A stretch of 64,000 nucleotides of DNA from Takakia lepidozioides (lineage: Eukaryota > Plantae > Bryophyta), in assembly GCA_030704615.1 (NCBI GenBank), contig CM060734.1, forward strand, positions 5,766,001 through 5,830,000. The letters are read 5' to 3'. The notes beneath the pieces were generated by a model, which made no database searches, was not told the DNA's origin, and saw only the letters and a list, made by a program, of their open reading frames with translations. The translations under genes and the position numbers were made by a program. Positions 27,021-53,455 of the stretch are shown here, one piece after another; the stretch's first letter is position 1; the number at the start of each line of letters is the position of its first letter.

Positions 27021-27143
27021 TCCAGTCAGGGAGGGGGGGGGGGGGGGCAAGATTGCAGTCCCTCCCTTGGCATCCACAAAAGTGCGATTCCACCACGCTG
27101 CTTGAAAAGGCCACATGGAGCCTCCTAATGCTGCGAATTTCGT

Positions 27144-29856: not shown

Positions 29857-30996
29857 AAGAATTTGGGATCCTGGAAGGAAGTGTTTTTGAGTGTAAGGAC
29901 TTCAAGTCCTGCTTAATATATAAGCATATGACAACATATCCCACAATACATCCGCAGAAGGTGATTTGTTTGCGAGGACGCAAACAGATGAGTGTGGGAG
30001 TATGTCATGTATTCATGTATGTAATGGTGAAGAAGCTTGAGGGGATGTAGTGCATAAGAAAAATAGAGTGATTCTACAGGAGGATATAGTTTGAAATAGG
30101 AGTGGGGCTCTTTATTAGTTTCTTCTAAAGTTATTATCAGCAATTTTTATTTTTTTTATCTTAAAGAAAATGGTGGAGACATTATGATGAAGGAAGAAGA
30201 CATGTTCATGGCTGAGAAACTTGTGATTGTCAAGACGATGAAGTGGAAGAACCACCTGCCAAGAAGATTATGACTTAGTTTTTTCTTAAGAGATGGTGTT
30301 TGCGGAGGCGCTGCACAACTAGGAGTAGGGCTATGTAGAATAATAGAAAATTCTTTGTGGAGTAGCATTTAGAATTGGAGTGCAAATGAACAAGAATTGG
30401 ATGTGAAATTGCACTATGGGGTTCGATAATTTGATAGAATTGGGTAGGATGATAGAACGGAAGTAAATTCAGATAATGGGGATGATAATTGGTAGGAATG
30501 GGGTTATTATGATAGATGTTAGCCCATTGAATCAGTGCTAGGTAGTTATGGTAGTTAGAGTAGGACACTATGAGTTCAGCTGAACTGATGTATTCATGGT
30601 CATTCGAGCGAGAGTGTTGAGGCCCTAGCACATGAGATGCTAGTTTGTCGTTTACAATAGTTTAAGTAAAAGATAAGAAAAATATGAGTAGTGTGATGAG
30701 ACAAAGATATGATGAAAGACTCTGTAAGCTTCATGTTAATGTGATGAGATGTTGGAGTTTAATGGGAAGAATTTTGTGTGAAAGAAAAAGATGAGGATTA
30801 TTTAATGAAGTGTGCAGATCAATATGAGAGGAATTTAATTGAGATGAATATTAAGACATTTATTGTTGGGAGCCAATTAGAAGTAGATATAGTGTTCTAA
30901 TCGCGACATAACAATTCAATTGTGTGCTTTCCCTGCGAACGAACCTTAGAACTAATTAATCCTTTTCTTTAGGATTGATTATAGTTTTATCCTACA
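29857..30996 (+). repeat. LTR-like direct repeat, copy 1, of an AT-rich (Athila-like?) element that hosts the DNMT retrotransposon
   Basis: Near-identical to 42643-43761. It ends ...tatcctaCA and is followed by tctttttgacgccgc, which resembles the Athila-type tttggcgccg PBS. Confidence 0.75.
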
Positions 30997-31052
30997 TCTT
31001 TTTGACGCCGCTTTGAGTGGGCTATTTTAGAACATTATATTATTGATAAAAG

Positions 31053-32242
31053 TGTCGTGCGCATACATATCGCTACACAACTACATCGTTGTCCAAAACC
31101 ACACAACACATGTGCACACCACACACTTGTATATCACTAATCCACCACTAGTGCAGCCACTAGGCTATAACTAGTCAGTCACTAGGCTGCCACTATGTTG
31201 CCCACTATGACAGTCACTAGTCCACACAATGATAAAGAAGAAGAATACAAGCATGAGCTCACAAATCTGAAGCATAAACTCATGCATATATAACCTCATC
31301 ACTCAAATACAAGTCAAGCCAAGTGCACCCCACACCATGGGGAATCCACACTACGGCGCCATAGCTAGACATGGTGAGGCTCAACTCGAGAAAGATGAGC
31401 CTCCCGCGCTTGCCATGAAGATAACCACTCCAGGGCCTAAATCTGCCTTGACCCCTGGATTGACACTTGGGCCAATCCAAATGTCAATATGTAAAAGCTA
31501 GCTATTTCCTAGCTAGTTTAACACTTGTGGTAAAATAACTTGACAGATGTCGTGCGCATACATATCGTTACACAACTACATCGCTGTCCAAACCCACACA
31601 ACACATGTGCACACCACACACTAGTATATCACTAGTCCACCACTAGTGCAGCCACTAGTCCAACCACTAGGCTACAACTAGCCAGTCACTAGGCTGCCAT
31701 TATGTTGCCCACTATGGCAGTCACTAGTCCACACAATGATAAAGAAGAAGAATACAAGCACGAGCTCACAAATCTGAAGCATAAATTCATGCATATATAA
31801 TCTCATCACTCAAATACAAGTCAAGCCAAGTGCACCCCACACCATGGGGAATCCACACTACGACGCCGTAGCTAGGCGCGGTGAGGCTCAACTCGAGAAA
31901 GATGAGCCTCCCGCGCTTGCCGTGAAGATAACCACTCCAGGGCCTAAATCTGCCTTGACCCCTGGATTGATACTTGGGCCAATCCAAATGTCAATATGTA
32001 AAAGCTAGCTATTTCCTAGCTAGTTTCACACTAGTGGTAAAATAACTTGACAGCTGTCATGCGCATACATATCGCTACACAACTACATCGCTGTCCAAAA
32101 CCACACAACACATGTGCACACCACACACTAGTATATCACTAGTCTACCACTAGTGCAGCCACTAGTCCAACCACTAGGCTACAACTAGTCAGTCACTAGG
32201 CTGCCATTATGTTGCCCACTATGGCAGTCATTAGTCCACACA
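31053..32242 (-). repeat. 3' terminal tandem repeat block Y-X-Y-X-Y: Y 32055-32242, X 31737-32052, Y 31548-31735, X 31230-31545, Y 31053-31228
   Basis: X is 316 bp in both copies and matches 40750-41065. Y is 188 bp (176 bp in the outer copy). Junctions on the + strand are TGACA-gc-TGTCA and TGACA-ga-TGTCG. Confidence 0.93.
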
Positions 32243-32502
32243 ATCGCCCCCCTAGCTGGTGCTTAGGTCCCTCTAAGTCCGGATAGCCACAAGATGTGAT
32301 AGTGACCATAGCCTCATTAAATCCTCCACCACTGTCCCTACTACACTCAAACTCGATAGATCAAGAGGCCGGGTGCAAGAGTCGCCCCATCGTTAGTCGC
32401 CGTCTTGCAACCTGTGAACTTGAGCCTGGGATCTCGTGTATTGACTCTTATGAGCTTGGCCTCCCATGTCTTGTTAGCTGCCTCTAGTCATGTCCACTGC
32501 CA

Positions 32503-34008
32503 CTATCCCAAGCAGTGTGGATATAACCAATCTCCATCAGGAACCCTCTCAAGAGGTGGTGTCAAGCATCCCATATGCCAACCTCTTGAGCATCGATCAC
32601 ACACCAGCATGGTGGCTGCCCCTTTGGCAGACCCACAGAGCATGCACCTCAAACCTGCAGGTACCACTGCCAAGTTTGGGTCAACTCTGCCATCGACATT
32701 GGGAATGTGACATGGCGCACAATTACGTACATGGTCTTTCCAAGTCATGCCATCCCGACCCTCCAAGATCAGGACTCCTGAGGGCAACACCTCTCGAATC
32801 CTTAGAATAACACGCCCTGCAGTGACATCTAGGGTCGTAGGAGCAGTCTGCTGCAAATAAACATAGTCACCAGGGCTAAACCTCCGAACCCCAGGACGAT
32901 ATCCTCCACCGCGTATAGTGGCATACCTCAAAGTATCACAATGTTGTGCAATGGCAAGGTTCTCAAAAGCCATGGGCATGATTTTCTTGAACAACTCTGC
33001 ACGCTGACCACATGCACGTACCCACACGTCTGGATCGTCAAGGTTAAGGACTTGAGCAGTGTCTCTACGAATGGCTGCAGGCAAATCCGGCTCTCGGCCA
33101 AAGAGAAAGAAATATGGTGAGAAGGAGGCAAGTGATGCTTGCTTGCTAAACCTGTAGCCCATGGCTAACCAAGGTACCTGAAGATCCCAATCTCCTAGGT
33201 GTCCCTTCTGCAAGCCGTACTTGCGTAAACCCCTCTTCACCGTCTGAACAACTATCTCTGCCAAGCCATCGGCCTCAGGATGATCCCAAGAAGTGGTGCG
33301 GTGGTCTATCAAGGCTTTATCACACAAAGTCTGAAACTCCCCCAAGAACTCTCTCCCTTGGTCCGCGAGTACCTCAGCTGGAGCACCGAATCGGCTAAGC
33401 GCACGATCCAAGAATGCATACGCAGCCCCCTCACTAGCCTTGTTAGGCAATGGAACCAACTCAATCCACTTGGAGAAGTGCTCCACCATCACCAACACAT
33501 ATATGTGGTGGCGCATAGTCAGTGGCAACGGTCCTGCGAAGTCAAGACTCCACCTGTAGCCCAATCCCATGATTAGTAAAGGATGCAACTGTGGTGTAGG
33601 GGCGTTGAATGAAGCACGCACCCTGTCACACACCATGCACCTAGCCACGAACTGTTGCACCTCTGTATGCATACCACGCCACCAATACTGCCCCTGCAGT
33701 AAACTGTGAGTGCGTCGCACTCCAAAATGCCCCAACTCCTCATGGGCATGCCGCACTAATCGTGCACGCTGTATGGGGTGAGGCACAATCCTCACCTGAC
33801 CATCCTCCCACACTCGAAGTAGGTGTATCCCCTCCCACTTGAACCTCTGGGCTCGTTGCAGGATCCGATCTCTCTCCCTAGCAGTCACAGCGGCTGCTGT
33901 GTCTCCCGTGCGGAGGTAGTCCAACACAGCCAAATCCTCATGTATATCTCTGGCACCACCTGGCTCATCACTAGCCTCAGGGTCCTCAGACACTCCGTCT
34001 ACAATCAT
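32503..34008 (-). CDS. Integrase (HHCC + DDE) with C-terminal PHD finger
   Basis: HEELGHFG...CMVC; WSLDFAGP, ADQGREF, DGLAE. PHD finger CMLC...VCDRCSRGWHMGCLTPPLERVPDGDWLYPHC, with the penultimate Cys replaced by Tyr. Confidence 0.93.
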   Translation of the reverse strand: MIVDGVSEDPEASDEPGGARDIHEDLAVLDYLRTGDTAAAVTARERDRILQRAQRFKWEGIHLLRVWEDGQVRIVPHPIQRARLVRHAHEELGHFGVRRTHSLLQGQYWWRGMHTEVQQFVARCMVCDRVRASFNAPTPQLHPLLIMGLGYRWSLDFAGPLPLTMRHHIYVLVMVEHFSKWIELVPLPNKASEGAAYAFLDRALSRFGAPAEVLADQGREFLGEFQTLCDKALIDHRTTSWDHPEADGLAEIVVQTVKRGLRKYGLQKGHLGDWDLQVPWLAMGYRFSKQASLASFSPYFFLFGREPDLPAAIRRDTAQVLNLDDPDVWVRACGQRAELFKKIMPMAFENLAIAQHCDTLRYATIRGGGYRPGVRRFSPGDYVYLQQTAPTTLDVTAGRVILRIREVLPSGVLILEGRDGMTWKDHVRNCAPCHIPNVDGRVDPNLAVVPAGLRCMLCGSAKGAATMLVCDRCSRGWHMGCLTPPLERVPDGDWLYPHCLG

Positions 34009-34026
34009 CCATGTTGTAGGTTCAAC

Positions 34027-35478
34027 CTAACCTCCCGATGGCAAGATACACAAAAATACAGATGCGTGCCATCCCGGCACCATCTCCTCGTCCGTCTCAC
34101 CATGCCACCGAGCTCCAGTGTCATCCTGTTGGCTCGTGCATGGATTGCGACTCAATCCATCCACATCCCGATTGACCAAACCCGGTCGATGCACAACCTG
34201 AAAGTCATACTCCTGAAGTATGAGTGCCCACCGTGCAAGCTTCCCCGTAAGCTTGTCTGACTCCATCAACCACTTGAGTGGCTGGTGATCCGTGACAAGG
34301 ATGAAAAGATTGTCGTATAGATAGCACCTGAAGTGTGCCACGGCCCACACTGCAGCTAAGCACTCTCCCTCATATGAGCTGTAGTTAGCCTCTGCAGCGT
34401 TGTTCAAGCGACTAGCATAAGCCACTACGAACTCTCTTCCCTCATCATCCACCTGTGTGAGCACCGCTCCAAGCCCCAGCATGCTCCAATCCGTATGCAG
34501 CTGAAAGGGACGCCCCCTGATAGGTCGTCTTAGGATAGACGCCGAGGTCAACCTCGCCTTGAGCTCTTGAAAAGTTCGTTCCTGCTCATCTTCCCACTGC
34601 CACTCCTGGTCCACCTTGGTCAGCTTGGTTAGAGCCTTTGCAATGGTACTAAATCCCTTGACAAACCGTCTATAATAGTATGCCAACCCCATGAAAGCTC
34701 GAACTCGGCTCACATCCGTGGGGCGTGGAATTTGTGCAATGGCATCTACCTTAGTCTGCTGTACCCCCAATCCTCCAGGATATATCATGTGACCCAGATA
34801 CTCAATCTGGTTGTGGAAAAACTTGCACTTCCCCGGATGCAACTTCAATCTGTGCGCTCTCAAGCGCTCCAATACCACCTGAAGGTGTCTCTCATGCTCC
34901 TCCACCGTAACACTAAAGATGATGATGTCATCTATGTAGCACCGAGCAAAGTCCACCCCTGTTAGAATCCTATCCATGACTCTTTGAAACTCTGCAGGAG
35001 CATTCTTAAGCCCAAATGGTAAGAACCGCCACTGATATAGGCAATCATTGCCGTGCTCATTGATCCCCCAGAATGCCGTCTTCTGCTTGTCCGCCTCCTT
35101 GATTGGCAACTGGTGATATCCGGATCGTAAATCCAAAGTGCTAAAGACCTTAGCATGCCCGATGGCATCAAAGATCTCCTCTGGTGTTGGCATGGCATAC
35201 TTATCGGACTTGGTTTGACGATTTACAGGCCGGTAATCACCGCACATACATCTCTCCGTCCAATTGCCATAGACATCCTTCTTGGCTAGCATCACTGTGG
35301 CTGAAGCATACTCTCCACCAGAGAGCTCCACCAAACCTGCCTCCCAGAGATCTTGAGTCCTCATCTGAATCAAAGACCTCTCCATGTCACTGTATCTATA
35401 GGGTCTCCGAAAGATTGGCATGTCAATGGCCAACTCAATACGGATCTCTTGACCCTTCAGTGCTCCCAAGTCCTTCAA
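34027..35478 (-). CDS. Ty3/Gypsy reverse transcriptase + RNase H
   Basis: CGDYRPVN, LDLRSGYHQ, LPFGLKNAP, YIDDII; RNase H motifs HTDWS, EGECLA, TDHQPL, DGLSR. Confidence 0.96.
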   Translation of the reverse strand: MKDLGALKGQEIRIELAIDMPIFRRPYRYSDMERSLIQMRTQDLWEAGLVELSGGEYASATVMLAKKDVYGNWTERCMCGDYRPVNRQTKSDKYAMPTPEEIFDAIGHAKVFSTLDLRSGYHQLPIKEADKQKTAFWGINEHGNDCLYQWRFLPFGLKNAPAEFQRVMDRILTGVDFARCYIDDIIIFSVTVEEHERHLQVVLERLRAHRLKLHPGKCKFFHNQIEYLGHMIYPGGLGVQQTKVDAIAQIPRPTDVSRVRAFMGLAYYYRRFVKGFSTIAKALTKLTKVDQEWQWEDEQERTFQELKARLTSASILRRPIRGRPFQLHTDWSMLGLGAVLTQVDDEGREFVVAYASRLNNAAEANYSSYEGECLAAVWAVAHFRCYLYDNLFILVTDHQPLKWLMESDKLTGKLARWALILQEYDFQVVHRPGLVNRDVDGLSRNPCTSQQDDTGARWHGETDEEMVPGWHASVFLCILPSGG

Positions 35479-35939
35479 ACTGCAGGCAAAGCAATTCCTG
35501 TAAGCCCTCAGGAACCGCCGTATACGTCGTCTCTCTCCTCCGGTGACAATGGGTCCAATGTCAGGCTCCCAATTGTCCTCTGTAACTGCAACCTTAAGTC
35601 CAGTGGGCTTAGAGGTAGAGGACTCGTCCAGTGGTTACTATGTTGCAACCTCTTGAGCAGTACTCCCTACCTGCTCAGTCAGTGACGAGGCCTCATCCTA
35701 CCCCATCATCTCATCCTCAAGGACTTCCTCCACCCGAGAAAAATCTCCAACCTCATCTATCACCGCCACCTTGGCTGCCAACTCCCTCTGAACCTCGAGC
35801 ACCTCCCACGTGTGCCATGGATGCCTGCACCCCGTGGTCCTCACATGCTCGCCCCCACTCACTGCCTGTACCATCTCGGTAGGCAGAGAGACCATCGAGG
35901 GAAGTGTACTCCGCACTCTGCGTTGCTCAGCCATAGCCA

Positions 35940-36900
35940 AGCTGATAATCCAGGTCAAGCAATTGAGATCCATTGCTTGCCCCAACCCCTGACGACGTGA
36001 TGCCTCAGAAAAAGACGACACCGCCGTGGTACCAGTGGTAAAACCCATTGCCCGCTCACGCTTGTCAGCATTAGGCTCCACTAACTGCTACAATTGAGCA
36101 TCCCACAGGAGGCCAGGTCCACTATCCCGGAAAGCATGCGATCCTGGGAAGCTGAGCAGTGTAGGTAATGCTGCTCGTGGTTGACCCACCTTGTTGACCA
36201 CTGCCAAAGGCAAACGGTCATCGTGTCTTACATGCTGAGACTGCGTCCCTGTCTCCAGAATGTTATCCACTATGAGATGTGCTGGCCGCTGCACCCCATC
36301 AAATGCACGCTTGAGCAGTGCGGGTGGCATCAAGTTAGTCCATCATAGCCGTGGACGATGAGCCCGTGACCCCACTGTAGCTGCATCTAGCAACACTGCT
36401 GACCCAAGCCACGACTGGACTTGATGCACACTGGCCATCACCCTAGCCCGAGAATCGCCCATCAGTGGCACATTCTCCAAGATGTATACTAGAAATACAG
36501 CCTGATGAAGCTGCAAGTGGCGCAAAACCCGCACCATCTCCCAAAACAGACCCGACCTCGAGTCTCGCAATCCATTGCCATGCCCGGCTGATGAATGCCC
36601 TTGGCAGGGCCAACCCACTACCAGATCAATGGAGCCAACCCGCTCCAAATCCTGCGCCCCCAGCAACGAAATGTCTGCTGGCAAGGCCTGCTGATATCCA
36701 CGAACTGTAGACACCGGCAACAACTTAGGGTACCGCTGCACCAACTGAGCAATATGGCGAAGTGAAACGCGTTGTGCAGTCTCATCCTCTCCACATACAG
36801 GTAACGCCGAACTCGTATACCTGCCTGTAAGACAGCAGCCAATCCGGTGCTGATCCCGCCAAACAAGTCCAGAAGACAAATGCCTTCATTTGGATACTGC
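35940..36900 (-). pseudogene. C5-cytosine DNA methyltransferase domain within pol (one frameshift, two premature stops)
   Basis: Motif I LLDLFGGISTGL (about 36840-36880); II YLYVE; IV DLVVGWPCQG (PCQ at 36601-36609); V DSRSGLF; VI ILENV (ENV at 36469-36477); VIII AHRPRL; IX RERAMGF; X LGQAMD. All are in canonical order. Confidence 0.92.
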
Positions 36901-37280
36901 CACACAATAGGTGTGGTGTCCAATGGAGACAACTGAGGTGGTCCTGGTGCAATCCCCGCACTCTCCTCCTCTCCTGACGTTACAAAAGCCTCCACCCAGG
37001 CTTGTTGCATCCGTCGATCAGCATCCCGCTGCAAATCCTTGCTCGTGCCCCACAATGGAGTCTGAGCAACCATGGTAGGCAACTCCGCCATACCATACAT
37101 GTCATCCTGCTCTCCCGGAGGTGGCACATCCTCTGAATGAGCGTTGCCCTCAAGCAACTCTCCAGGCCAATTCACTGCCGCTGTGAATGCTGCTAGTGTC
37201 GATATCTTGCCTCGCTGGGCAACCGCAACTCCTCCTATGAACGTCACATTGAGCTGCACACGCCGGCCCTTCCCTGACTG

Positions 37281-37733
37281 TCATCCAGGCCTATAGGAAG
37301 CTGACTCCTCCCAAAAATCTAGGGTAAAGCCCATGGGGTACAACATTGCCCAACCAACCAGGACATCGTACGAGACCGCGTCTGTCACAATGGCCTTGGC
37401 TCGCATCACTGAGCCATCTGTAGGGTGATCCGGCCATAGTCTGATAGCCAACTCACGCCGTGTCATGCCCCGAGCCTGCTCTGATCCTCCCAAAGATGTC
37501 TGTATCTGGAAAAGACAAGGCTCCATATCCGCCTTCGTGAGGCCCAAGCCTGCAATATCAGCTCTGCCCAACATCAATGGCTGAGCTCCCGAGTCCAACG
37601 AGACCCGCAGTGGCCGGTACCTCTTGCCTGCCGGTCCACTCAAACAGAAAATGTCATCCTGGTTGTCTAACATGACAACTCCAGGTGTCACCATGGCGCG
37701 CTCAATGGCTGGCCTAGCTGGCAGCTCCATCAA
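37281..37733 (-). CDS. Retropepsin-type aspartic protease
   Basis: VSLDSGA catalytic motif and YDVLVG C-terminal motif. Confidence 0.85.
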   Translation of the reverse strand: MMELPARPAIERAMVTPGVVMLDNQDDIFCLSGPAGKRYRPLRVSLDSGAQPLMLGRADIAGLGLTKADMEPCLFQIQTSLGGSEQARGMTRRELAIRLWPDHPTDGSVMRAKAIVTDAVSYDVLVGWAMLYPMGFTLDFWEESASYRPG

Positions 37734-38372
37734 CCTGGCAGTTGCAGCTTGCTATGGCGCCGCCGTGGCAGTCTTGACCCTCAAATCCGAGGATCCCTCC
37801 GGCACTACACCTCCCATTATCTCTGCAGAAGATGAAGTAATATCCCCACTCTCACAGAGTGTAGCTGTCAGCCTGAACACCTCAGCTGGTCTTACCTCCG
37901 GCGTCGCAATCATGGTAGCCGAGAACAATGGAGCCTGGCACACAGATGTGGCCACTCTTAGCAGCACACTAGCTGCCGTAGCCTTGGCAACACTAGGTAG
38001 TGGTGCTACCCGTGTAGCTCTCCCCAATGGCATAGTAACCTCCGCCTCGGTAACAGTCGGGCAAGAACTAGGTGCCATGGATGGCGTCGACATTGTCTCC
38101 GCCAATGTAAATGACTAAGGAAGCCTAGCCTGACGGCTTGCCTCCCCACACTGTGGATCCAACTCCACCTCTGCACCTCGTGGCTCAGGAACTCGTGTTG
38201 CTCCTCGAGTCACGGCTGCAACAGACTCCACCTGCACTAGTGGTAGTGCTGCTCCGCACATGAATCCCATGCCTCCCATATCTCCTCCCTCAGGAGCAGG
38301 AGGTGGACCATCCGGCCTTGGAGCCGGTACCACCTGAGCTATAGCCATGGCAGCGAGCTTCTGCTCTAGCTG

Positions 38373-38690
38373 CTAAAGCCAGTTGGCCAAGCCTTGGTCA
38401 ATACCCTGACCTCCGTGTCCTTGGCCATGTTGAGCTTGCCCTTGGCCTACACCCCGTGCCTGGCCACCTCGTCCTCTTTGGGCTGTTCCCCCTCGCCCCC
38501 GGCTACCATTGTTCCCTTGGAACTGACCTGGGCGCAACTCGGGATGCAAACCATAACATTGGGCCTCTCCATGCCCGTGCTTGCCACAATGCCTACACTG
38601 CAATTGTGCAGGCTGTGCATATACCAGCCCTTGGCCTCCCTTTGGACAATCCTTCTTGACGTGGGGTCCTCCACATGTCCAACACACCAC
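38373..38690 (-). CDS. Gag C-terminal zinc knuckles and RG-rich segment (upstream capsid region not found)
   Basis: CWTCGGPHVKKDC and CRHCGKHGHGEAQC, followed by RGRGG repeats. Confidence 0.75.
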   Translation of the reverse strand: MVCWTCGGPHVKKDCPKGGQGLVYAQPAQLQCRHCGKHGHGEAQCYGLHPELRPGQFQGNNGSRGRGGTAQRGRGGQARGVGQGQAQHGQGHGGQGIDQGLANWL

Positions 38691-38778
38691 ATCCGCCCGT
38701 TGTTGGCCTGCAAATGAAGGGAGAGACCCCTACATCTGAGGTCCTCTCTGCCCTTCCCTGAGCTTCACTTGAGCCCCC

Positions 38779-39210
38779 CACAGCCCGTTACAGCCCCACA
38801 GGCCACAGGGCACAGCCTGACACAGCCCGTCACAGCCCCACAGGCCACAGGGCACAGCCTGACACAGCCCGTCACAGCCCCACAGGCCACAGGGCACAGC
38901 CTGACACAGCCCGCCACGGCCTGTCACAGCCCCTCACAGCCCCTCACAGACCCACAGGCCATAGGGCACAGCCTGTCACAGCCTGTCACAGCCCTACACA
39001 GGTCACAGCCCCAAAGGCCACAGCCTGTCACAGCCCATCAGAGCCCTACACAGGTCAGAGGGGTCATAGCCCCAAAGGCCACAACCTGTCATAGCCTGTC
39101 ACAGCCCGTCACAGCCCCATAGGCCACAGGGCACAGCCCCTCACAGGCCCTCACAGCCCTACATAGGTCACAGGGGTCACAGCCACAGCCTATCACAGCC
39201 CCTCACAGCC
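38779..39210. repeat. 42-bp minisatellite in the leader of the DNMT element
   Basis: Three near-perfect copies of cacagcccgtcacagccccacaggccacagggcacagcctga (38779-38904), then degenerate copies. Confidence 0.9.
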
Positions 39211-40733
39211 CATCCATGGCCACTCATGGCAGTTTAGCCATTTCTCCAAGGGGTTTAGCCACGCCACGCTAGGGTTTGTGTCTCTTGGACTCTAGGCTTC
39301 TTTGCACCGAGCTATGGCGGCTGTGAAGAAAACAACAAGGTATTCTTGTTCTTTCGGCTCCCACACACCACCAATAGTAGCCCTAAGCCATGAGGAAGAT
39401 GGTTGCCACAAACCAAGCATTCTTTCTCACTTAGACTCCCCAAACACGCCACTAAACTCAATGGCAAACAACCAAGCCTTGCTGGTTTGTAGCCCTGGTG
39501 AGCACTGATTCAAGCGTTTCCCTTGGCCATAGCATCTGTCTTAGAGCCTATTCCATCCCCCTACACCTGCCACTTCAAGAGCCATGCTCTATCTAGGCTT
39601 GAGGTTGAAACCCCAACTCAGAACACGCTCTACAAGTGTCGGACTGTCACATAAGAGCAGATCAGCCCCTTACCTTCTCTTCTAATTCTCTAAAGCTTGA
39701 AAACAAAAGCCCAATGGACTGAAGGCATGCTCCACACATGCCCCACTCTCACCAACAGAGAATCAGCCCCTTTGCTTTCTTTCTTGCACCCACCAACCTG
39801 AAAATACACGCTTCAGCGGGCTGGAAGCATGCTCCACACCCTACAGGGAAACCAGCCCCTTCCTTCATTTCTTGCACTCCCAAACCTGAAAGTACAAGCC
39901 TTCATCAAGCTGAAAGCATGCTCCACACATGCATTGCTCTCACATAAGGGAAGTCAGCCCTTCCCTCTTCCTTGCTTGTCCTCCAAGCTTGAAGATGGAA
40001 GCTTCAATGAGCTGAATACATGCTCCACACATGCAACCTCTTCACATAAGAGGTATCAGCCCCCTATCTTGGCTCCTTAGCTCCTTGATGGTCTCTAAGA
40101 CAAGACTAAGCACTCCACAGCCCTTGCCAAGCTACTAAAACCCTAAGGCTTACATTTCCAGCCACAAGACACTCCTCTTGTGGTGCAAGAGCTCTTCTTC
40201 CAAGCTCTGAAACCCTAGGTGCACATTCCATGGCCTTGCCGCACCTCTTAGCTCCTGTTCCAGCCCTGCTCTTGCCATGACAAGAGCCCTCTCAATGCTG
40301 AAGCCCGAGATTGAAACCCAATCTCAACATACTCCTCAAAGTGCACTGATTTGCCCCAAGCCAAATCAGCCCTTTCGCTTGGTCTTGCAATCCTTCACAC
40401 AATGAAAGTTCGCATTCCCAAGTCCAGTTCTCAGCTTTGCCACCAAAGCCACTATAACCTGCTCTTGACTGGTCCTCTTCTCAATCGTGCTTGTTCATGC
40501 ATGTACACAATCTGAAACCATCAAGGTGCTCTGGAATTACCTGCAGCATGGTGCTTTCATCTCTGAAGTTGAAGATCGAATGCCAAGGTCTACCACCTCG
40601 TAACCCACATCGCCTCCGCTTCTAGCAACCAAGAGCTCCACGGTGCTCCTTGCATAACAACCTGGTTTCTCTCATTCTCAAGCAAAAACCACAAGTGCTA
40701 CAACTAACTCGTATCTGGCACTGACAGATATGA

Positions 40734-40750
40734 GCTCATCTTTCTCGAGT
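40734..40750 (-). promoter_or_regulatory. Putative self-priming primer-binding site
   Basis: gctcatctttctcgagt (40734-40750) is the exact reverse complement of actcgagaaagatgagc (40904-40920) inside the adjacent repeat X. There is no TGG start as in a tRNA-type PBS. Confidence 0.65.
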
Positions 40751-41065
40751 GATAAAGAAGAAGAATACAAGCACGAGCTCACAAATCTGAAGCATAAACT
40801 CATGCATATATAACCTCATCACTCAAATACAAGTCAAGCCAAGTGCACCCCACGCCATGGGGAATCCACACTACGGCGCCATAGGTAGGCGCGGTGAGGC
40901 TCAACTCGAGAAAGATGAGCCTCCCGCGCTTGCCGTGAAGATAACCACTCCAGGGCCTAAATCTGCCTTGACCCCTGGATTGACACTTGGGCCATCCCAA
41001 ATGTCAATATATAAAAGCTAGCTATTTTCTAGCTAGTTTCACACTAGTGGTAAAATAATTTGACA
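40750..41065 (-). repeat. 5' terminal repeat X of the DNMT element
   Basis: 316 bp, TG...CA, near-identical to 31230-31545 and 31737-32052. Confidence 0.93.
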
Positions 41066-41229
41066 AAATAAACGTTGGATCAAAAGAGAAACTGAATTAT
41101 GAAGCTTGTGAGGTTAGGGCTTTGAAAAAAAAAAATTTGTCGGGGATTTTGTGTTTTTAGACTTTTGTTTTTCTATGGTTTCAATTTTTTAATTTTCTTG
41201 GATGTGAAACAATTACATACCTATTCGAG

Positions 41230-42560
41230 ATGGAGCAATTTGTTCCTACAACCCCTAGGGAAGCATATCTTTATAATTATTATGTGAACTTTCAGAGTGT
41301 GAATCGTGATCTGACTGTTCAATTGAATTTGGCTCAAACGAGGAATTTGGAAGAGATCCGGGCAAAAGATCTTGAAGCTGAAGCTTTGCTACAAAGAAAT
41401 GATGAGCATTTTCAAAGTGAGATTTCGACCTTGAAGGCAAAGTTAGATACAATCTCAATCGAGAAGGAGAAATTATTACTGGATAATGAAATTTTGCAAG
41501 AAGAAAATCAACTCTTATACATGAAGGTGCAATTTCTGGATGATCAAGTTGCCACTCTTTTATCAGAGAAAGTAAGTTTTGAGCAAGATAATGCAATGGC
41601 TATTCAACAATGTAAAGAAATTGCCTTGGAGGTCGTGCAAATAAGGGACCAATTCACTCAGTTGAGAAATTTGGAAGATAACACAATTTTTGAGGCAAAG
41701 CTAAATTCTTGCAATTATCAAAAATCGCAAATTTATTTGGAGGAGATCAATTTGGACGTGTGTTCAAATTTTGATACATTGAAGGTCATTGAGGAAAACT
41801 CAAGTTGGAATGGTGATTGTGACAAATTGCTTCAATTTTGTGCTTACAAACAACAATGCAAGTGTATTACCATGGAGGTGATGATATTTTCATTTCTTTT
41901 GAAATTGATACAATTGTGAAAGTCATGACCACAAAGAAGACCAAGAAAATGGTTAATAATTATCCCATGATTGAAGAACAATTGGACCTTTTGGATGGAT
42001 ATGAGGCCAATACTGCCAAAGTGATGATAGTGAATAATTTACAACCAATTGATCTATCTAAGAGCATCATTGATTGTGAAGGACTATGTGTTATAAATCA
42101 GCCAAAAAAGTTGGAAGCTGATTTTTTCCAACAGACTTTCATTATGAGACTTTTTCCAAGAGATTCTAATTTTTTTTTACAGATAGTATTTCAATTTGGG
42201 AAATTGAGAACCAAGATAATTTGGACAATTATAAAGTTTCAATGGGAAATCAAGATTTTGGTGGACTATCCGAGTCTATTGTATGCACAATTGGTGAAGC
42301 AACCCGATCCATCGATTGGGCAATTGAAGAAAGAGCTTAGCTGTTTTCATGTATGCGGTACATTTCAAATTTCGAATAATGATCAACAAAAAGTTCACAG
42401 TTTTGGATTAGCTGTGATGATACAATCAACAAATGGTGATGCGGTCTTCTCTGAAAACAATTGGATTCCTAGTCTACAAGATCATGAATTGCCTCGGAGT
42501 TCATCTCAACAGTTAAGAAAGAGCTTGGTGCTAAACATTCATTCGATACTATATCACTAA
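41230..42560 (+). pseudogene. Coiled-coil ORF(s) of the AT-rich host LTR element
   Basis: Overlapping ORFs 41230-41919 (E/L/Q-rich heptads) and 41838-42560 lie between the two 1.1-kb direct repeats. No enzymatic motif was recognised. Confidence 0.4.
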
Positions 42561-42642: not shown

Positions 42643-43761
42643 AAGAATTTGGGATCCTGGAAGGAAGTGTTTCTGAGTGTAAGGACTTCAAGTCGTGCTT
42701 AATATATAAGCATAGGACACCATATCCCACAATACATCCGCAGAAGGTGATTTGTTTGCGAGGACGCAAACAGATGAGTGTGGGAGTATGTCATGTATTC
42801 ATGTATTGTGAAGAAGCTTGAGGGGATGTAATGCATAAGAAAAATAGAGTGATTCTACAGGAGGATATAGTTTGAAATAGGAGTGGGGCTCTTTATTAGT
42901 TTCTTCTGAAGTTATTATCAACAAATTTTATTTTTTAATCTTAAAGAAAATGGTGGAGACATTATGATGAAGGAAGAAGACATGTTCATGGCTGAGAAAC
43001 TTGTGATTGTCAAGACGATGAAGTGGAGGAACCACCTGCCAAGAAGATTATGACTTAGATTTTTCTTAAGAGATAGTGTTTGCGGGGGTGCTGCACAACT
43101 AGGAGTAAGGCTATGTAGAATAATAGAAAATTCTTTGTGGAGTAGCATTTAGAATTGAAGTGCAAATGAACAAGAATTGGATGTGAAATTGCACTATGGG
43201 GTTCGATAATTTGATAGAATTGGGTAGGATGATAGAACGGAAGTAAATTCAGATAATGAGGATGATAATTGGTAGGAATGAGGTTATTAGGATAGATGTC
43301 AGCCCATTGAATCAGTGCTAGGTAGTTATGGTAGTTAGAGTAGGACACTATGAGTTCAGCTGAACTGATGTATTCATGGTCATTCGAGCGAGAGTGCCGA
43401 GGCCCTAGCACATAAGATGCTAGTTTGTCGTTTTCAGTAGCTTAAGTAAGAGATAAGAAGAATATGAGTAGTGTGATGAGACAAAGATTTATTGAAAGAT
43501 TCTGTAAGCTTCATGTTAATGTGATGAGATGTTGAAGTTTAATGGGAAGAATTTTGTGTGAAAGAAAAAGATGAGGATTATTTGATGAAGTGTGCAGATC
43601 AATATGAGAGGAATTTAATTGAGATGAATATTAAGACATTTATTGTTGGGAGACAATTAGAAGTAGATATAGTGTTCTAATCGCGACATAGCAATTCAAT
43701 TGTGTGCTTTCCCTGCGAACGAACCTTAGAACTAATTAATCCTTTTCTTTAGGATTGATTA
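42643..43761 (+). repeat. LTR-like direct repeat, copy 2, truncated just before the LTR end
   Basis: Near-identical to 29857-30981. Confidence 0.85.
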
Positions 43762-46109: not shown

Positions 46110-46146
46110 TCCATGTGTTTCATTTTTCCTTAGCAGTGGCGCCTCG

Positions 46147-49100
46147 TGTCGCGCACCTCACTTCGGTAAGCTCCCCTTCAAGTCATAGTTACTCGCTTTG
46201 ATGCGTGCGCCTAACCCTCTAACTGGCCGCCGAGCCAACTCGGAGCTTCGGCTGCTCACCGGGACATAACGGTCCCCCTTTACTCCTCCACAAGACCCTC
46301 TCCCAATTTGGGCCCAGTGGAAATTCCCTTTGGTCGATGGCAGTCCGGAATAGCTCCCCACACCTTGGTCGCTTTCCGGCTCCCACGCTTACTCACTAGT
46401 TTTTGGACACCAACGGGCTTGCACCGTTCTCGGGGTTACTACTCCCTATATATACTTCTGTGACTGTCCGCGGGGGTTTCACAAACAACCATGCCATTTT
46501 ATGGCGAACCACCATGAAAATCCTCGATTCCCGGTGATGAGTCGCGGTGAGTCTTGGCCCACCCACCACGGTCCCATTGGACCGTGATGAGTCCCAGACT
46601 CCCCACGACTCCCTCCACAAGGTCTCCGCCCCATGGTGAGTCCTATGCCACCCCCACTAAGTCCCACTAAGCTACCACCACCCTTGTGGAACCACCCCCA
46701 CCGCAACCCTGTGTGCGGGGCTCCACCTAGTGAGCGCCTCCGCCTTCTTGAGTGCCTTAGGCACTCAAGGGTGCTTCAGCCCCCGCAACTAATGTTGCCA
46801 CTGCCCCCACCACAGGGGCAGCCCTCACGTGTCCCGACCCCCTGCCCTCAAGGCAAAGGGCCGCGACACACACCCTACCAACAGGGAGTCGATGTCCTCA
46901 TCGACTTGTCCATTTTGTAGAAACGAACATCCAAGTTGTGGCGTCCCACATCAAGGAGTTTGTTTCCGCACCATGGCGTCCCATGGCTAAGAACCAAACC
47001 CCCACTTGACTCTACTCTCCACTAGCTAGTTCGGCGACTTCCTCCAAGTCCCGACCAAGGGTGGAGCCTCTCAAGCTCCTCCCAGTGCACTCTTCTTGAC
47101 CCACTTCAGGGCCAAGGAACGATCCTCCCCGAGGATTGAATCGCCTTACTGCAACAATATTTGCTTGCGACCGCTCGTGATGTCGCTTTTGGCATCACCT
47201 TGAGCAAGGGTTCGCCTTGAACCCTTTTTTTACTAGGAAGATAACCTTGAACCAACCGTGCGCCCCAATCACTACAATTGGGTCCGCCTTGGAATGCTGT
47301 GGCCTGAGGTACGGGGAACACGCCGACGAAGCCGCACTACGACTTCGTCCCGAGGCTACACGATTATAGTAACGTGAACGGAAGCACGTAGCTTCCGCGT
47401 TAGCCCGCACTACAAGACAATCCCTTGGTAGCGCAGGTTAAGTACGCGTACAGCCAGGTGCGCACTAGCACATGAACTCCCAACGAAGGTGCAAGTTTCC
47501 TTGCCCCTTGGGTGGGAGTCACTCGATTTCGGCACTACACAAACACACGATTAATCCAATTTACCTCTCCCACTTTGTAAGCTTAGCATGCATTCTACAC
47601 ACTAGCCAACCATACCATGCATCACCATTCCAAACCCAAACAAAATTAGGACGCACAACATTGGAAACCATTTCATTATAACAAAATTGTACAAACAAGT
47701 TTTTGCAATCGGATTCCTGAGCTAGCTAAGCCGGGCTAAGCATGCATTTCCTCCCCACGATCCAAGGTTGATGTCCACTCAACGCTTCTTCCGCTTTTGA
47801 GGTCGCCCTTCAAAAATGTAACCGCCTCGATGCGTTTCCCATTCTGAGGCACGAACCCAAGATGCCTCCACATGATGATAGCCCTTCCATTTCACGAGAT
47901 ACTCCGTTTCTTGATTCTTGAACCTCCTCGACTTAAGCACTGCCTCCACCTCGTACTCAGGTTCATTTTCATGATCCAACAGCACAGGTGGCGGACGCAA
48001 CACTTGATGTCGATTCAGACGCGTTTCATCTTTAAAGTAAGGCTTGAAAAGGGAGACGTGGAATATCGGATGCACCTTGCTGTTGCCTGCAGCTCCAATT
48101 CATACACATCCTCATTCATAACCTTCCGGATGCGAAAGGGTCCCGCATACTGAGGTACGAACTTTGGACTCACTTCCGGAGGTAGTCGAAAATTCTTGAT
48201 GTTCAACCAGACCTCTTGCCTCAAACTTAACTCCCTCCGCTTCCGATTCGCCTGCCGTTCATACCGTTTCCTAGCTTTTGCAATGTTGTATTTTGCGAGC
48301 TTCAACAAACATTCGCGTTCTTCCAGCACTGCCGCTGCTGCCGGTTCCTCAACGTCTTGGGCGGCCCAACTTGTCGGCACCAGAGGTGCTTTTCCATAGA
48401 CCAATACGAAAGGGGAAACTCCCGTTGCGAAGTGTTTTGTGTTATTATAACAGAACTCTGCCGCATCCAAGTGCTCCACCCAGTCCGATTGAGCCGACAC
48501 GTAATTCCGAAGATCTGCTTCACCACGGAATTCACCTTTCCGTTTGGCACGTTGTCGTAGGTCGGAAAGGCGGTGCTCATTTTGAGCCTCTGTCCCCATT
48601 TTTTCCAAAGTACCCTCCAAAATTTACTAGTAAACTTTGGGTCGCGGTCCGAGACAATATCCTTCGGGAATCCATGATGCTTGAAGACGTGGGCAAAGTA
48701 AAGTCGCCCCGTCTCGTTGCCGTCTCCTTGGTGGGGATGAAATGGCCCATTTTATTGAACCTATCCACCACCACCATGATTGCATCGAATCCTTTTGACA
48801 GCGGCATAGCAGTCATGAAGTCCATCGAGACACTTTCCCAAGACCCCTCTGGTTTTAACAGCCCCGCTTGCTTTTTGTACTCGCTCCGGTTTTGTTGGCA
48901 TGTGGTGCATGTCTTGACATACTCCTCGGCCTCCTCCCTTATTTTGGGCCAGAAATACTTTTTTTTCAAGAGTGCTGCGGTGCGCTTGGCTCCGCCGTGG
49001 CCCGCAAGCGGGCCATCATGGCATTATCTTAAGAGACTATCTCTAATCCCTCCCTTTGGCACGTAGAGACGCTTTTGCTTGTACCGGAGTAATTCATTTT

Positions 49101-52100
49101 GCAAGTGGAACTGCGATTAACCCCATCCTCAAGTCCCGCATCACGGACTTCGCCATTTCATCCTTCCGGTAAGCCTTCCGGATCTTCCTCTGGAGCGCCG
49201 TCTCGCCCTTGTACACTAACATGAGCTGCTGCTTTCTACTTAAAGCATCGGCCACCACATTGTCCCGTCCCGGTTTGTACTAGATATCCACGTCGAACAC
49301 CGCCAAAGTGTCTTGCCACCTAAGTTGTTTTGGGGACAACTTAGGCTGCGTGGCAAAATACTGCACCGTGACATTGTCCGTGAACACCTTCACCGGGTCG
49401 GAACCAACATAGTGGCGCCAAAGCTCAAGGCAATGCACCACCGTCTTCATCTCTTTCTCGTGCGTTGGCCACCGCCGCTCCACTTCCTTCAGTTTCTTAC
49501 TTTCGTAAGCCACCGGACGTCCATCCTGCATGAGTACACCTCCAATCGCGAAGTCCGACGCATCCGTATGAATCTCAATGGCGGTCGAACTCCGGGATTT
49601 TCAGGACTGGAGCTTCCGCCATCCGCTGCTTCAACTCGGCAAAAGCTTGGCCACTAAAGGTGTTCCATACCCAGACTTTGGATTTACACAGGAGGTCTGA
49701 CAGTGGCCCCGCGATCTTGGCGAAATTTCTCACATACTTTCGGTAATAGGAGGCAAGTCCTAAGAAGGATCGCACTCCTGGGACCGAAGTCGGAGGCTGC
49801 CAGTCCAAGATTGCTCTCACCTTTCTGTCATCCATTTTGATCCCATCCTGTGTAATCACATGCCCCAAGAACTCCACTTTTGTGACCCTGAATTTGCACT
49901 TTGAAGCTTTGGCATACAGCTTCCCTTCCCGTAATTTCTGGAACACCCTTTTGAGGTGCTCCAGGTGCTCTTTTCTTTTGTTTCGAGTACACCAAGATGT
50001 CGTCGATGTACACGATCACAAAGTCGTCCAACCACTCCTGGAAAAGGCTGTTCATTAGCGTGCTGAAGGTTGCGGGTGCGTTGGTGAGCCCAAAAGACAT
50101 CACCAAGAACTCATAAGAACCATACCTTGTCCTGCATGCAGCCTTTTCCTCATCTCCTTCCGCCACTCGAATTTGATGATAACCGGAGTGCAAATCGATC
50201 CAGCTGAAATACTTCGCTCCTGCCAACCGATCGAAGAGGTCGTCGATCCTTGGCAAAGGGTATCGGTTTTTGATAGTCACCTTATTCAGAGCCCTGTAAT
50301 CGACACACATCCGCAGCGTCCCATCTTTTTTATCCGCGAATAGCACCGGGGCTCCGTAAGGTGACTTACTCGGCCGGATGTACCCCTTTGACATTAGATC
50401 CTTGAGCTGAGTCTTCAGCTCGACCAACTCTTTGTGGCTCAACCGGTAGGGCGCCTTGACAGGCGGCTCCGATCCCGGTATCACCTCAATCTTGTGGTCA
50501 ACTCCTCTTCGCGGTGGCAAGCCGCTTGGTAAATCCTCCGGCATCACATCCTGATATTTCTCCAAAATCCCCTTGATCCAATCTGGGCTCGACTCCCCAT
50601 CGTCTTCTCCTTTCACTTGTCTTATGTAGAGCAAAAACTGGGGCTCGTGTGGCTCCTCCACGGCCCACTATTTCCCTGACAACAGGTTTATTCGTCCTCC
50701 CACTAGGTTGGGCGTTTCCGACACTCTTAAAACTTCGCCACCATTCCCACACGGTAGCGTGACTATTCTCTTGCGGCCATCTATGACCGCTCCTGATTTG
50801 CTCAAAAAGGTCATCCCCAAAATGAGATCCACTCCATCGATCTCGCAAATGGTGAAGTTCTCACGTCCCTCCCAACTCCCGAGCTGAAGAGGAACATCGA
50901 ACGCCAACCTCGTCGCCAATTGTGGTTCTCTTTTAGCAAAACGCACCTCAATAGAAGCCCCCACTTCACTTGTTGGGAGTCCCAGCTTCCGTGTCATTGC
51001 CGGTGTCATGAAGGAGTGTGACGCTCATATGTCCATCAACAACGACACGTTAGTTCCGGAAATTATCCCACTCACGAATAATAACTGACTCCCTTTGTGC
51101 AGGGCGCCAGTTTCCTGGTACAACTCACAAGAGTAGTTGCCTACCTTGCAAGTCTTGGCAACCACTGCCTCCACCAAGCGGCTAATGGAATCCTCGGACA
51201 ACTCCGTGGTTGCCCGAATCATGTTCAATTGTCGGGGTTTCGCGCACTTTTTGGCCATGTGCCCGGGTTCCCCGCAATTAAAGCACTCCATCAAAGGTTG
51301 CCTTCTGCCCGCCATAAGCCGCCGCACCTGGTTTTCTTTTTGGGGCACCGGGTGCCGTCTTGACGTGTGAGGGCCCTCCTTTCGATTTCCATGTGCCATT
51401 GTCGCCGCGTGGCCTATCCCACTTCTTTTCCGGTCGGAAAGAGTCACCCTCCCGCCGGACCTTCTTGTGGTTCAGCTCCATACGGCCTTGCCTTTCGCCC
51501 CTAGGACATCCGAGAAACATTCAGCCCTTTCAATTGCCTCGTTCAAAGTCTTAGGTGGCTTCTCCTCCAACTTCCGCCTGGCCCATAGGGCCAGTCCCGC
51601 CACAAAGTTGAAGACCATTTCTGGTTCTGCCATGTCCGCGACTTCGAGCAACAGCACATTGAAAGCCTGAACATATCCGTGGATGTCATCCGTTTGCTTC
51701 AAATTCCTCATCTTGTCCCGGGCGAGCCAGGACGCGTTGATGGGCACAAACTGTCTCTTCATAAGTTCCTTGAACCCACCCCAATTCAAGGTTTCCGGGT
51801 TTGGACCTCGGTCGTGAAGGCGTTTCTGCCACCATTGTTGAGCATAGCCCCTCAAATAGGTGGGAGCCACTTCCACCCGATCCTCGTCACTCAACTTGGC
51901 CGCCCGGAAGTACTGCTCTAGCTCCAAGAGTGTTGAGTGTCTTCCGATTTCGGATGCCCTCGAAGGTGTCGGGTTCCTTAAGCTTCACCTTAAATTTTGC
52001 CTCAGTGGAAGTGGCATTAGCCGCCTTCAACACATCTTTCAACGACCCGCCAAACTGCGTCAACAACCCTTCCCAAAAGGCTGCTGGAATGGGAGGCATC

Positions 52101-53078
52101 TGTTGGTCTGTCGGAGCTCTCAGGAATTCCTCGGGCTCCGACTCCTCAGATTCCTCCCGTCCTTGAGCGGCCTCGCTTCCAAAGGCATGAATTGCTTCCT
52201 CAAATGGCCGCTTCGGTGACACGTCACCCCCATCGGGCTCACCAGGATCATTATCTTTCGGGTCGTTCCGCTTTCACTTTGGCTTGCCCGACCCCATGAT
52301 GAGGCCGATCCTAAGGACGATTGCGTACTGAACTCTAAGCTCTGATACCAAGTGTCGCGCACCTCACTTCGGTAAGCTCCCCTTCAAGTCATAGTTACTC
52401 GCTTTGATGCGCGCGCCTAACTCCCTAACTGGCCGTCGGGCCAACTCGGAGCTTTGGCTGCTCACCGGGACATAACGGTCCCCCTTTACTCCTCCACAAG
52501 ACCCTCTCCCAATTTGGGCCTAGTGGAAATTCCTTTTGGTCGATGGCAGTCCGGAATAGCTCCCCACACCTTGGTCGCTTTCCGGCTCCCACGCTTACTC
52601 ACTAGTTTTTGGACACCAACGGGCTTGCACCGTTCTCGGGGTTACTACTCCCTATATATACTTCTGTGACTGTCCGCGGGGGTTTCACAAACAACCATGT
52701 CATTTTATGGCGAACCACCACGAAAACCCTCTATTCCCGGTGATGAGTCGCGGTGAGTCTTGGCCCACCCACCACGGTCCCATTGGACCGTGATGAGTCC
52801 CAAGACTCCCCATGACTCCCTCCACAAGGTCTCCGCCCCCATGGTGAGTCTTATGCCACCCCCACTAAGTCCCACTAAGCTACCACCACCCATTGTGGAA
52901 CCACCCCCACCGCAACCCGGTGTGCGGGGCTCCACCTAGCGAGCGCCTCCGCCTCCTTGAGTGCCTTGGGCACTCAAGGGTGCTTCATCCCCCGCAACTA
53001 ATGTTGCCACTACCCCCACCACAGGGGCAGCCCCTCACGTGTCCCGACCCCCTACCCTCAAGGCAAAGGGCCGCAACA
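46147..53078 (-). mobile_element. Full-length chromodomain Ty3/Gypsy retrotransposon; LTRs 52353-53078 and 46147-46868; TSD cctcg
   Basis: 5-bp TSD cctcg at 46142-46146 and 53079-53083. Met PBS at 52339-52350. Gag, knuckle CFNCGEPGHMAKKC, protease, RT YIDDIL, RNase H, integrase and chromodomain YEVEAVL...YLVKWKGY are present, with multiple frameshifts. Confidence 0.96.
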
Positions 53079-53083
53079 CCTCG

Positions 53084-53455
53084 TCACGTGGCGAGGCGTC
53101 ACTTGATGCTTTTAAATTTAAAAAAAAAACGATCGCCACACCGCGGGTCGTTGGATTTTTTTTAAAAAAACGACGCAACCGCCGCATGGCGGTCGCTATA
53201 TTTTAAAAAAACAAAAAAAGAACGGCCGCCAAATGGCGGTCGCTGCATTTTTTTAGATATATTAAAAAAGCGACCGCCAAACTGCAGTCGTTTTATTTAA
53301 GAAAACAAAATAAGCGACTGCCATTTGGCGGTCGCGTAATATTTTTAATATACAAAAAGCAGCGACCGCCCTTATGGCGGTCGCTTCATCTTAGAAAAAC
53401 CCAAGTTAGGGAAAAAGATCGACCGCCTTTGTGGCGGTCGCTTCATTTCCTTGTG
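53084..53455. repeat. Array of gcgaccgcc-n-ggcggtcgc palindromes ending ...CCTTGTG; probable arm of a CACTA/EnSpm-like DNA transposon
   Basis: About 7 hairpin copies separated by A-tracts. The terminus reads CACAAGGA on the - strand, and the same 8-mer ends a repeat-rich block near 20199. Confidence 0.55.

Follow-up and report, generated by a model that had tools for sequence, protein, structure and literature searches.

The window, that is, the whole stretch of 64,000 nucleotides from Takakia lepidozioides analysed here, contains on its minus strand a Ty3/gypsy retrotransposon (31053..41065) in which the PBS (primer-binding site) position is occupied by the reverse complement of a segment of the element's own 5' repeat. 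Where would the primer for the reverse transcription of such an element come from? An earlier note on this DNA had put forward self-priming as a candidate answer. The analysis below leads us to the view that the 12 to 17 nucleotides that follow the 5' repeat, which we call S', likely bind a primer taken from the element's own RNA, which we call S, as in Tf1.

To our knowledge, self-priming has been shown experimentally only in elements of fission yeast; in plants, it is a prediction based on sequences. Passages of PMC4600332 describe it for Tf1, in which a 5' segment of the mRNA is the primer, and present it as a proposal for Tj1. Passages of PMC6317226 predict it for most plant chromoviruses of the Tcn1 clade, in mosses and club-mosses, and for the TAR copia elements; they also give an operational definition of a self-primer, namely at least 10 bp in the 5' LTR that are complementary to a stretch starting 0 to 5 bp after the LTR. 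In the window element, this complementarity extends over 17 of 17 nucleotides.

The element and its relatives

The element is 10,013 bp long, with termini 5'-TGTCA...GACA-3', as delimited by self-BLAST, by its junctions and by Pfam. It is flanked by AAAT (41066..41069) and AAAG (31049..31052), the two halves of a putative 4-bp target-site duplication, which match at three of four positions. Read along the minus strand, on which all its features lie, it has the order B1 - S' - leader - gag - PR - DNMT - RT/RNase H - IN-PHD - PPT - A1 B2 A2 B3 A3, where A and B stand for the two halves of a repeat, PR for the protease, DNMT for a DNA methyltransferase, RT for the reverse transcriptase, IN for the integrase and PPT for the polypurine tract.

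A protein-guided scan of metagenome contigs yielded 27 loci, numbered L in what follows, whose reverse transcriptases are 51-80% identical to that of the window; related loci are absent from the viral contigs and the genome contigs scanned. The coding parts of the metagenome loci have about 72-76% DNA identity with the window, and BLAST detects no similarity between their repeats and those of the window. The order PR-DNMT-RT-IN is found in all loci that cover the region (L001, L002, L003, L007, L012, L017, L026 and L027), and is kept even in L026/L027, which are distant relatives.

The polyprotein of the window element reads gag-PR-C5 DNA methyltransferase-RT-RNase H-integrase-PHD. The gag piece (38376..38729) has two CCHC zinc knuckles in translation, and tblastn matches it to L017, L003, L007 and L001; the aspartic protease (37284..37751), recognized in translation by its LDSGA motif, also has tblastn matches in relatives. 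Next comes the C5 cytosine DNA methyltransferase module (35701..37280), identified by PF00145 (E 1.2e-10) and by translation: it is broken in the window by one frameshift and by stops, and its FGG, PCQ and ENV motifs are readable. The reverse transcriptase and RNase H (34030..35634; PF00078, PF17917, PF17919) have the Ty3 reverse transcriptase (4ol8) as best solved relative, with E 2.4e-69. The last coding part (32506..34026) is an integrase with an H2C2 zinc domain (PF17921) and an rve core (PF00665), which carries a C-terminal PHD finger (PF00628, E 2.3e-8); Pfam finds no Chromo domain in this open reading frame.

The repeats are arranged in an unusual way. The half B1 (40750..41065) is 316 nt long and, by self-BLAST, 96% identical to 31737-32052 and 31230-31545; it is preceded by flanking sequence and followed by S'. 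At the other end of the element, a polypurine-type tract, AGCTAGGGGGGCGA (32244..32257), stands directly upstream of A1 and belongs to a non-coding stretch (X 8778-8827), the only one for which blastn detects conservation with the metagenome family. Then come A1 (32055..32243), of 189 nt, which reads TTGTGTGG...GACA; B2 (31737..32052), again of 316 nt, joined to A1 by GACA-GC-TGTC, a 10-bp palindrome; A2 (31548..31736), with the B2|A2 junction ...TATCA|TTGTGTGG; B3 (31230..31545), which belongs to an extra unit and is joined to A2 by GACA-TC-TGTC; and finally A3 (31053..31229), the 3' terminus of the element, which closes with GACA after 177 nt.

Taken together, A and B form a unit of 507 bp that has every canonical LTR signal, with the polypurine tract before A and the PBS position after B. 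In these two features, as in its PR-RT-RNase H-IN order and its reverse transcriptase closest to Ty3, the element resembles a canonical Ty3/gypsy element (Metaviridae). Unlike such an element, it does not have the same full LTR at both ends within its target duplication: the 5' end has only B, and the 3' end is an A. The earlier note had taken the 5' repeat, which it called X, for the element's own LTR. That it is a repeat unit of the element is borne out; it is, though, the B half of a split direct repeat rather than a plain LTR.

An inverted match at the repeat boundary

The half B1 contains, in this order, a TATA-like TTATCTT, S, and a putative R-U5 region. On the minus strand the repeat closes with ...TTCTTTATCA at 40750, and the putative primer-binding site S' (40734..40750), which reads ACTCGAGAAAGATGAGC, begins at that very A: B1 and S' share this base. 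Its partner S, the putative self-primer (40904..40920), reads GCTCATCTTTCTCGAGT, corresponds to positions 146-162 of B, and is followed by TGAGCC. A repeat search in the window returns these two arms as a 17-nt inverted match, 100% complementary, with 153 nt between them, in agreement with the earlier note on both the perfection of the match and its contact with the end of the repeat.

The same note had stated that the element has no tRNA-type PBS led by TGG, and that the neighbouring chromovirus has one of Met type. Both statements hold. TGG is absent from the first 20 nt past the repeat boundary of the window element, and the tRNA-iMet-type TGGTATCAGAGC is present at 52339-52350 and at 9640-9651, as the PBS of the window's chromovirus copies, which have a chromodomain ORF nearby; the element studied here, unlike these copies, has no PBS of this type. 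ARAGORN reports no tRNA gene in the window, and none in the 27 metagenome loci.

How unusual is such a match? Allowing up to 3 mismatches, the pattern of the 17-mer has in the window four exact matches and one with 3 mismatches, versus 0.18 expected from shuffles, and none of 100 shuffles reaches five matches. The exact matches include a copy of S in each of the two full 3' repeat units (31384-31400 and 31891-31907). We also scanned the whole window for exact inverted matches of at least 12 nt with a loop of 60-400 nt: once the palindromic tandem-repeat blocks at 1397-2429 and 12332-12629 are set aside, S:S' is the sole inverted match of at least 15 nt. The probability that a complement to the 17 nucleotides following the repeat occurs by chance anywhere in the 316-nt repeat is about 2e-8.

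The two arms are also paired in predicted RNA structures. The fold of the RNA running from 40920 to 40730 has a predicted energy of -85.8 kcal/mol (z -8.0) and is closed by the S:S' stem; the corresponding S-to-S' fold of the metagenome locus L017 is predicted at -57.8 kcal/mol (z -2.9), and S:S' is again the closing stem. In the window, S is also part of a local hairpin, GAGGCTCA...TGAGCCTC.

Compensated changes between two families

The earlier note had suggested looking for compensatory changes among diverged copies, and such changes are found. In the metagenome locus L017/L018, the 17 nt counted from the last base of B1, ACTCAAAGAACTATGTT, pair over 17 of 17 positions with AACATAGTTCTTTGAGT, which occupies positions 164-180 of B; the loop is 158 nt long, close to the 153 nt of the window. 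The comparison involves two independent lineages only, the window family and the metagenome family, and gives the following counts: 10 of the 17 pairs have other letters on both sides when the window is set against L017, and no pair has changed on a single side. Restricted to the core of 12 pairs, 5 have changed on both sides, none on one side, and 7 are the same. The counting was done with a script that took the repeat boundary and TGAGCC as its fixed points; MAFFT misaligned S and S' between the families. Two features are common to both families: the motif TGAGCC comes right after S, and the duplex goes no further than the repeat boundary. A relative that keeps the pairing with other letters, in a duplex that ends at the same boundary, supports the self-priming candidate at the level of sequence comparison.

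Other copies of the metagenome family keep the pairing to different extents. L007 and L020/L021, which are independent copies, retain 12 contiguous pairs from the boundary; the degenerate copy L004/L005 has only 7 contiguous pairs left. In L003 and L013, also independent, B1 lacks S, owing in both to the same deletion, about 29 nt long, that spans a local hairpin. A third lineage was sought: the contigs of L001/L008 stop before S, those of L026/L027 extend only 2.3 kb upstream of RT, and the 27 metagenome loci contain no further 5' ends beyond those compared.

Could the match be due to chance, or be an inverted repeat acting at the level of DNA, as a site of recombination or a site for the integrase, and have no role in RNA? 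Nothing specific speaks for such a site, except that palindromic sequences do matter in this element, as seen in the A|B junction GACA-NN-TGTC. The chance expectation computed above and the fact that all 10 positions differing between the families are compensated both argue against this explanation, as does the location of the integrated termini, which are at other sites, where B starts and where A ends, with target duplications beside both; we consider this explanation highly improbable.

We now turn to variation within the family of the window. In contigs of this family from four runs, X2 (2164 contigs), X6, X5 and X11, there is no variant in S at a level of at least 2%, and the loop between S and S' has six variable positions. 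The first 13 nt of S' have no listed variant. The only listed change in S' is 40737 C>G, at its 14th nucleotide, with 19% of the depth in X2 and 41% in X6; it is also present in an X7 contig of organism B. No listed row has a compensating change at its partner, position 40917: the pairing is therefore not maintained at positions 14-17. In one diverged X12 contig the change 40914 G>A is present; with an unchanged S', it would produce a G-U pair. Counted from the boundary, the first 12-13 nt are thus fixed within each family, and the positions beyond them drift.

These data also bear on the possibility that S:S' is a structural stem of the leader, involved in packaging, dimerisation or the control of translation, and that the true primer is a host RNA, for example an internal fragment of a tRNA. 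Retroviruses are known to have leader stems in which the PBS region takes part, and the local hairpin of which S is a part in the window would suit a structured leader. Three observations speak against this reading. The duplex ends, in both families, at the repeat boundary, which is the required place of the 3' end of a primer; only the 12-13 nt proximal to this boundary are fixed, which is better explained by a primer of set length than by a stem; and the PBS letters of the two families differ at 5 of the 12 core positions, so that one conserved tRNA or other host RNA cannot fit both. With TGG also missing, a leader stem combined with a host primer seems to us rather improbable.

A possible self-priming mechanism

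Returning to priming by the element's own RNA, which we prefer, the sequences suggest the following course of events. Transcription would begin at or just inside S, at about 40916-40920, and the 5' end of the RNA would then pair with S' by folding back. A cut by RNase H at the 3' end of the duplex would free an RNA of 12-13 nt, which would prime minus-strand strong-stop DNA across the R-U5 region of about 150 nt. In each cycle S' would be recopied from the primer, and changes in S would pass to S'. Such recopying would explain the covariation, with no need for selection on double mutants, and also why only 12-13 nt are fixed. Moreover, the repeat boundary is where minus-strand DNA starts, so the 3' end of a primer must pair exactly there: S does, in both families.

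The fixed core of 12-13 nt suggests a primer of that length, and an RNA start near 40916, inside S. Tf1 has a primer of 11 nt, to which the length derived here is close. The metagenome family has a TATAAAG 31 nt upstream of the 12-nt core, counted to the core's first base, a position that fits a start of transcription at S; the window family has only TTATCTT, a weak TATA-like motif some 24 nt upstream of S.

A variant of this scheme keeps S as the primer and changes its origin: instead of folding back from the 5' end, S would be supplied by the copy in B2 or B3, close to the 3' end of the same RNA, or by a second RNA packaged with it. The presence of the same 17-mer in both full 3' units (see above) is what this variant needs, and L003, which has lost S from B1, still has it in B2; however, L003 is a dead copy with many stops, and says little on function. 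Against the variant, the loop is short and constant (153 and 158 nt) and the predicted local fold is strong, two features that favour pairing in cis, and the TATA box of the metagenome family, 31 nt upstream of the core, would place S at the 5' end of the RNA. We consider a primer of 3' or foreign origin to be unlikely.

Here, the sequence-based prediction of self-priming in plants gains comparative support, in the form of compensated changes and a fixed core of 12-13 nt, and is extended to a lineage that has no chromodomain.

Permuted copies with integrase-type duplications

The integrated copies of this lineage have a permuted form with split direct repeats, B-internal-A-B-A, to which the copy in the window adds one extra A-B. 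The complete copies L017 and L003 read B1-internal-A1-B2-A2, with termini TGTCA...GACA. Target duplications of 4 bp are AAGG in L017, TCTC in L003 and TGTT/TGTT in L007 (complete); in L021, as in the window, the two halves match at 3 of 4 positions. The duplicated bases lie next to the first bases of B on one side and next to the last bases of A on the other.

The same picture emerges when the ends are taken separately. The five independent 5' ends of the metagenome loci (L017=L018, L007, L003, L013 and L020=L021) all begin with TGTCA beside unrelated flanking sequence, and in none of the five does an A precede B. The 3' ends are of two kinds, each found in four independent loci: PPT-A-B-A|flank in L017, L014, L003=L022 and L012, and PPT-A|flank in L015, L007=L019, L021 and L011. 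For the family of the window, the X7 clone contig of organism B and two X12 contigs depart at 41065-41069 into unrelated sequence, and the 24 X2 contigs that continue past 41065 have an agreement of only 0.51 with the sequence of the A end. It follows that the B end is the normal 5' terminus of the family. The X12 contigs, which may or may not derive from RNA, are deeper over B than over the leader; we take neither this nor their departure at 41065/41066 as evidence on expression or start sites.

Another reading of the layout was rejected, in which the 5' repeat is a truncated LTR and the whole element an accidental permuted insertion inside an outer element bounded by 1125-bp repeats: independent insertions have identical termini, and 4-bp duplications of their own.

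The junctions between the halves are informative. In the A|B junction GACA-NN-TGTC, NN is GC, AT, AC and AC in the metagenome copies, and GC and TC in the window, and the integrated termini are the two halves of this junction without NN. The B|A junction is precise in the family of the window, with 7 X2 contigs in full agreement, and it varies in the metagenome copies, which have +A, +G, GAA, or an insert of 21 nt; this insert finishes in CCGAG, which resembles the end of the polypurine tract.

We sought a way to obtain B-internal-A-B-A by reverse transcription alone, and none was found that works on paper. A route through a circle, derived from the anatomy of the junctions, can be proposed with lower confidence than the priming scheme. 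Reverse transcription would yield its usual product, (A-B)-internal-(A-B), whose ends would then be joined, creating the B|A junction; the DDE integrase would open this circle at GACA-NN-TGTC, inside the repeat; and the opening would produce the permuted form B-internal-A-B-A, with its TGTCA...GACA ends and its 4-bp duplications. Stated in general terms, the tentative proposal, which we would not yet call probable, is that this bryophyte lineage of Ty3/gypsy elements has altered its mode of genome entry, that self-primed reverse transcription makes an ordinary LTR-ended DNA, that the integrase ignores the ends of this DNA and opens a circle with one or two LTRs at the palindromic GACA-NN-TGTC internal to the LTR, and that the provirus would consequently always be B-internal-A or B-internal-A-B-A.

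The opening of a circle also predicts a mirror form, B-A-B-S'-internal-A, which is found at none of the five independent metagenome 5' ends; the copies L015 and L011, of which only the 3' part is available, could be mirror forms. Copies without the terminal B-A could equally have arisen by recombination of A with A after insertion.

Circular DNA is usually regarded as a dead end in the integration of LTR elements. If the proposal is true, a closed circle would be an obligatory or regular integration intermediate for a retrotransposon with a DDE integrase, and the element using this route would also encode a cytosine methyltransferase of its own, along with a chromatin reader of PHD type.

Comparison with known systems

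In its putative priming, the element resembles Tf1/Tf2 of Schizosaccharomyces pombe, the Tf1/sushi group, Tj1 of S. japonicus and Tcn1: the PBS directly after U5 is complementary to a segment of the LTR, or of the 5' region of the mRNA, in place of the 3' end of a tRNA. Contrary to the Tf1/sushi and Tcn1 chromoviruses, it has no chromodomain, a PHD finger being found in its place; a DNA methyltransferase stands between its PR and its RT; and its integrated form is permuted.

In its repeats, the element resembles the elements of the DIRS order (PAT-like, Ngaro), with a single repeat half at the 5' end and three halves in a row at the 3' end. This terminal arrangement is the one expected if a circle with a tandem repeat is opened inside the repeat. 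Elements of the DIRS order rely on a tyrosine recombinase and are not known to duplicate their target; the present lineage differs from them by its DDE integrase (PF00665), its TG...CA termini and its 4-bp duplications. The pairing of a DIRS-like repeat layout with the chemistry of a DDE integrase points to integration from circular DNA.

The closest described element is KnitGypsy-Dnmt3 of Klebsormidium nitens, a Gypsy-type element whose Pol includes a DNMT and which is described as having 'the structure of repeats ... of a DIRS retrotransposon' (de Mendoza et al. 2018, PMC5890265). Compared by description, the two share a C5-DNMT inside pol and DIRS-like split repeats combined with Gypsy domains; they differ in their hosts, which here are land plants (the moss of the window, Marchantia, Calypogeia and Sphagnum). 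The main text of PMC5890265 does not contain the terms 'primer binding' and 'PHD', nor its supplement 'KnitGypsy', 'split direct' and 'integrase'; as far as the text of that paper was seen, self-priming, target duplications, TGTCA...GACA termini and a palindromic junction are not described for KnitGypsy-Dnmt3. The literature searched yielded no description of DNMT-bearing or split-repeat Gypsy elements of bryophytes. The element as a whole unites a DNMT with a PHD finger, with putative self-priming, and with split direct repeats flanked by duplications of integrase type. Software that looks for LTR elements by expecting the same repeat at both termini and a PBS for a tRNA is likely to annotate copies of this kind wrongly.

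Finally, the DNMT piece gives an idea of the host range. It has 47 homologues, several of which are fused to RT (P0005, P0009, P0041 and P0042). Homologues with 62-76% identity come from Marchantia polymorpha, Calypogeia fissa and Sphagnum troendelagicum, where they are annotated as hypothetical proteins; the lineage is thus widespread in bryophytes, and this DNMT- and PHD-bearing Gypsy family, whose copies are circular permutations with integrase-type duplications, spans liverworts and mosses. Among solved structures, the DNMT piece has weak matches of similar score to M.HhaI/M.HaeIII, at E of about 2e-3, and to DNMT3B, at about 6e-3.

Variants of the repeat among relatives of the element

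The hairpin of S, the putative self-primer carried by half B of the repeat unit, is absent from the 5' repeat of two relatives from metagenome contigs, L003 (1766-2075) and L013 (4608-5010), where an identical deletion removes about 29 nt. The two loci are independent insertions, and L003 retains S in its 3' repeat. The loss of the hairpin may be an event that recurs during reverse transcription.

At their 3' ends, loci L007, L021, L015 and L011 pass from the polypurine tract and half A to the flank, without a terminal B-A; L007 and L021 are complete B-internal-A copies with 4-bp duplications. Copies ending in this way arose either directly, for instance as a one-LTR circle that was opened, or through A-by-A recombination.

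Coding modules and leader

The polyprotein of the element contains a C5 cytosine DNA methyltransferase module (35701-37280, minus strand) flanked by protease and RT, a position that is kept in every metagenome relative covering the region. Homologues of the module are present in Marchantia, Calypogeia and Sphagnum, several of them as RT fusions. In P0047, a more distant polyprotein of 1652 aa from ENA, the methyltransferase domain lies between RNase H and integrase and not, as in the element, between protease and RT. Relocation of the module, or more than one gain of it, is possible. The integrase of the element ends, at its C-terminus, with a PHD finger (PF00628; 32506-32650, minus strand), where chromoviruses have a chromodomain.

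The long leader from S', the putative primer-binding site, to gag holds two tandem-repeat blocks on the minus strand, at 38757-39211 and 39709-40062, whose repeat periods are about 42-52 nt and about 102 nt.

Surroundings of the element

Two copies of a 1125-bp direct repeat, 96% identical (29857-30981 and 42643-43761), enclose the element together with flanks of 71 bp and 1577 bp. The repeat lacks TG...CA ends and has no obvious target duplication, and neither of the two plus-strand ORFs of the 1577-bp flank (41161-41919 and 41823-42560) has a Pfam match. Either a non-autonomous element or a segmental duplication could account for the structure.

Tandem units, each bearing a 16-22-nt palindrome of the AAATGCGGCACCGCATTT type, form two blocks (1397-2429 and 12332-12629) that look satellite-like. 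The window also contains chromovirus-type copies at 4703-10378 and 46146-54793, with the PBS TGGTATCAGAGC at 9640-9651 and 52339-52350 (minus strand); the LTRs at 46146-46869 and 52352-53079 are 96% identical to each other. A plus-strand ORF with a chromodomain lies at 27020-28924.
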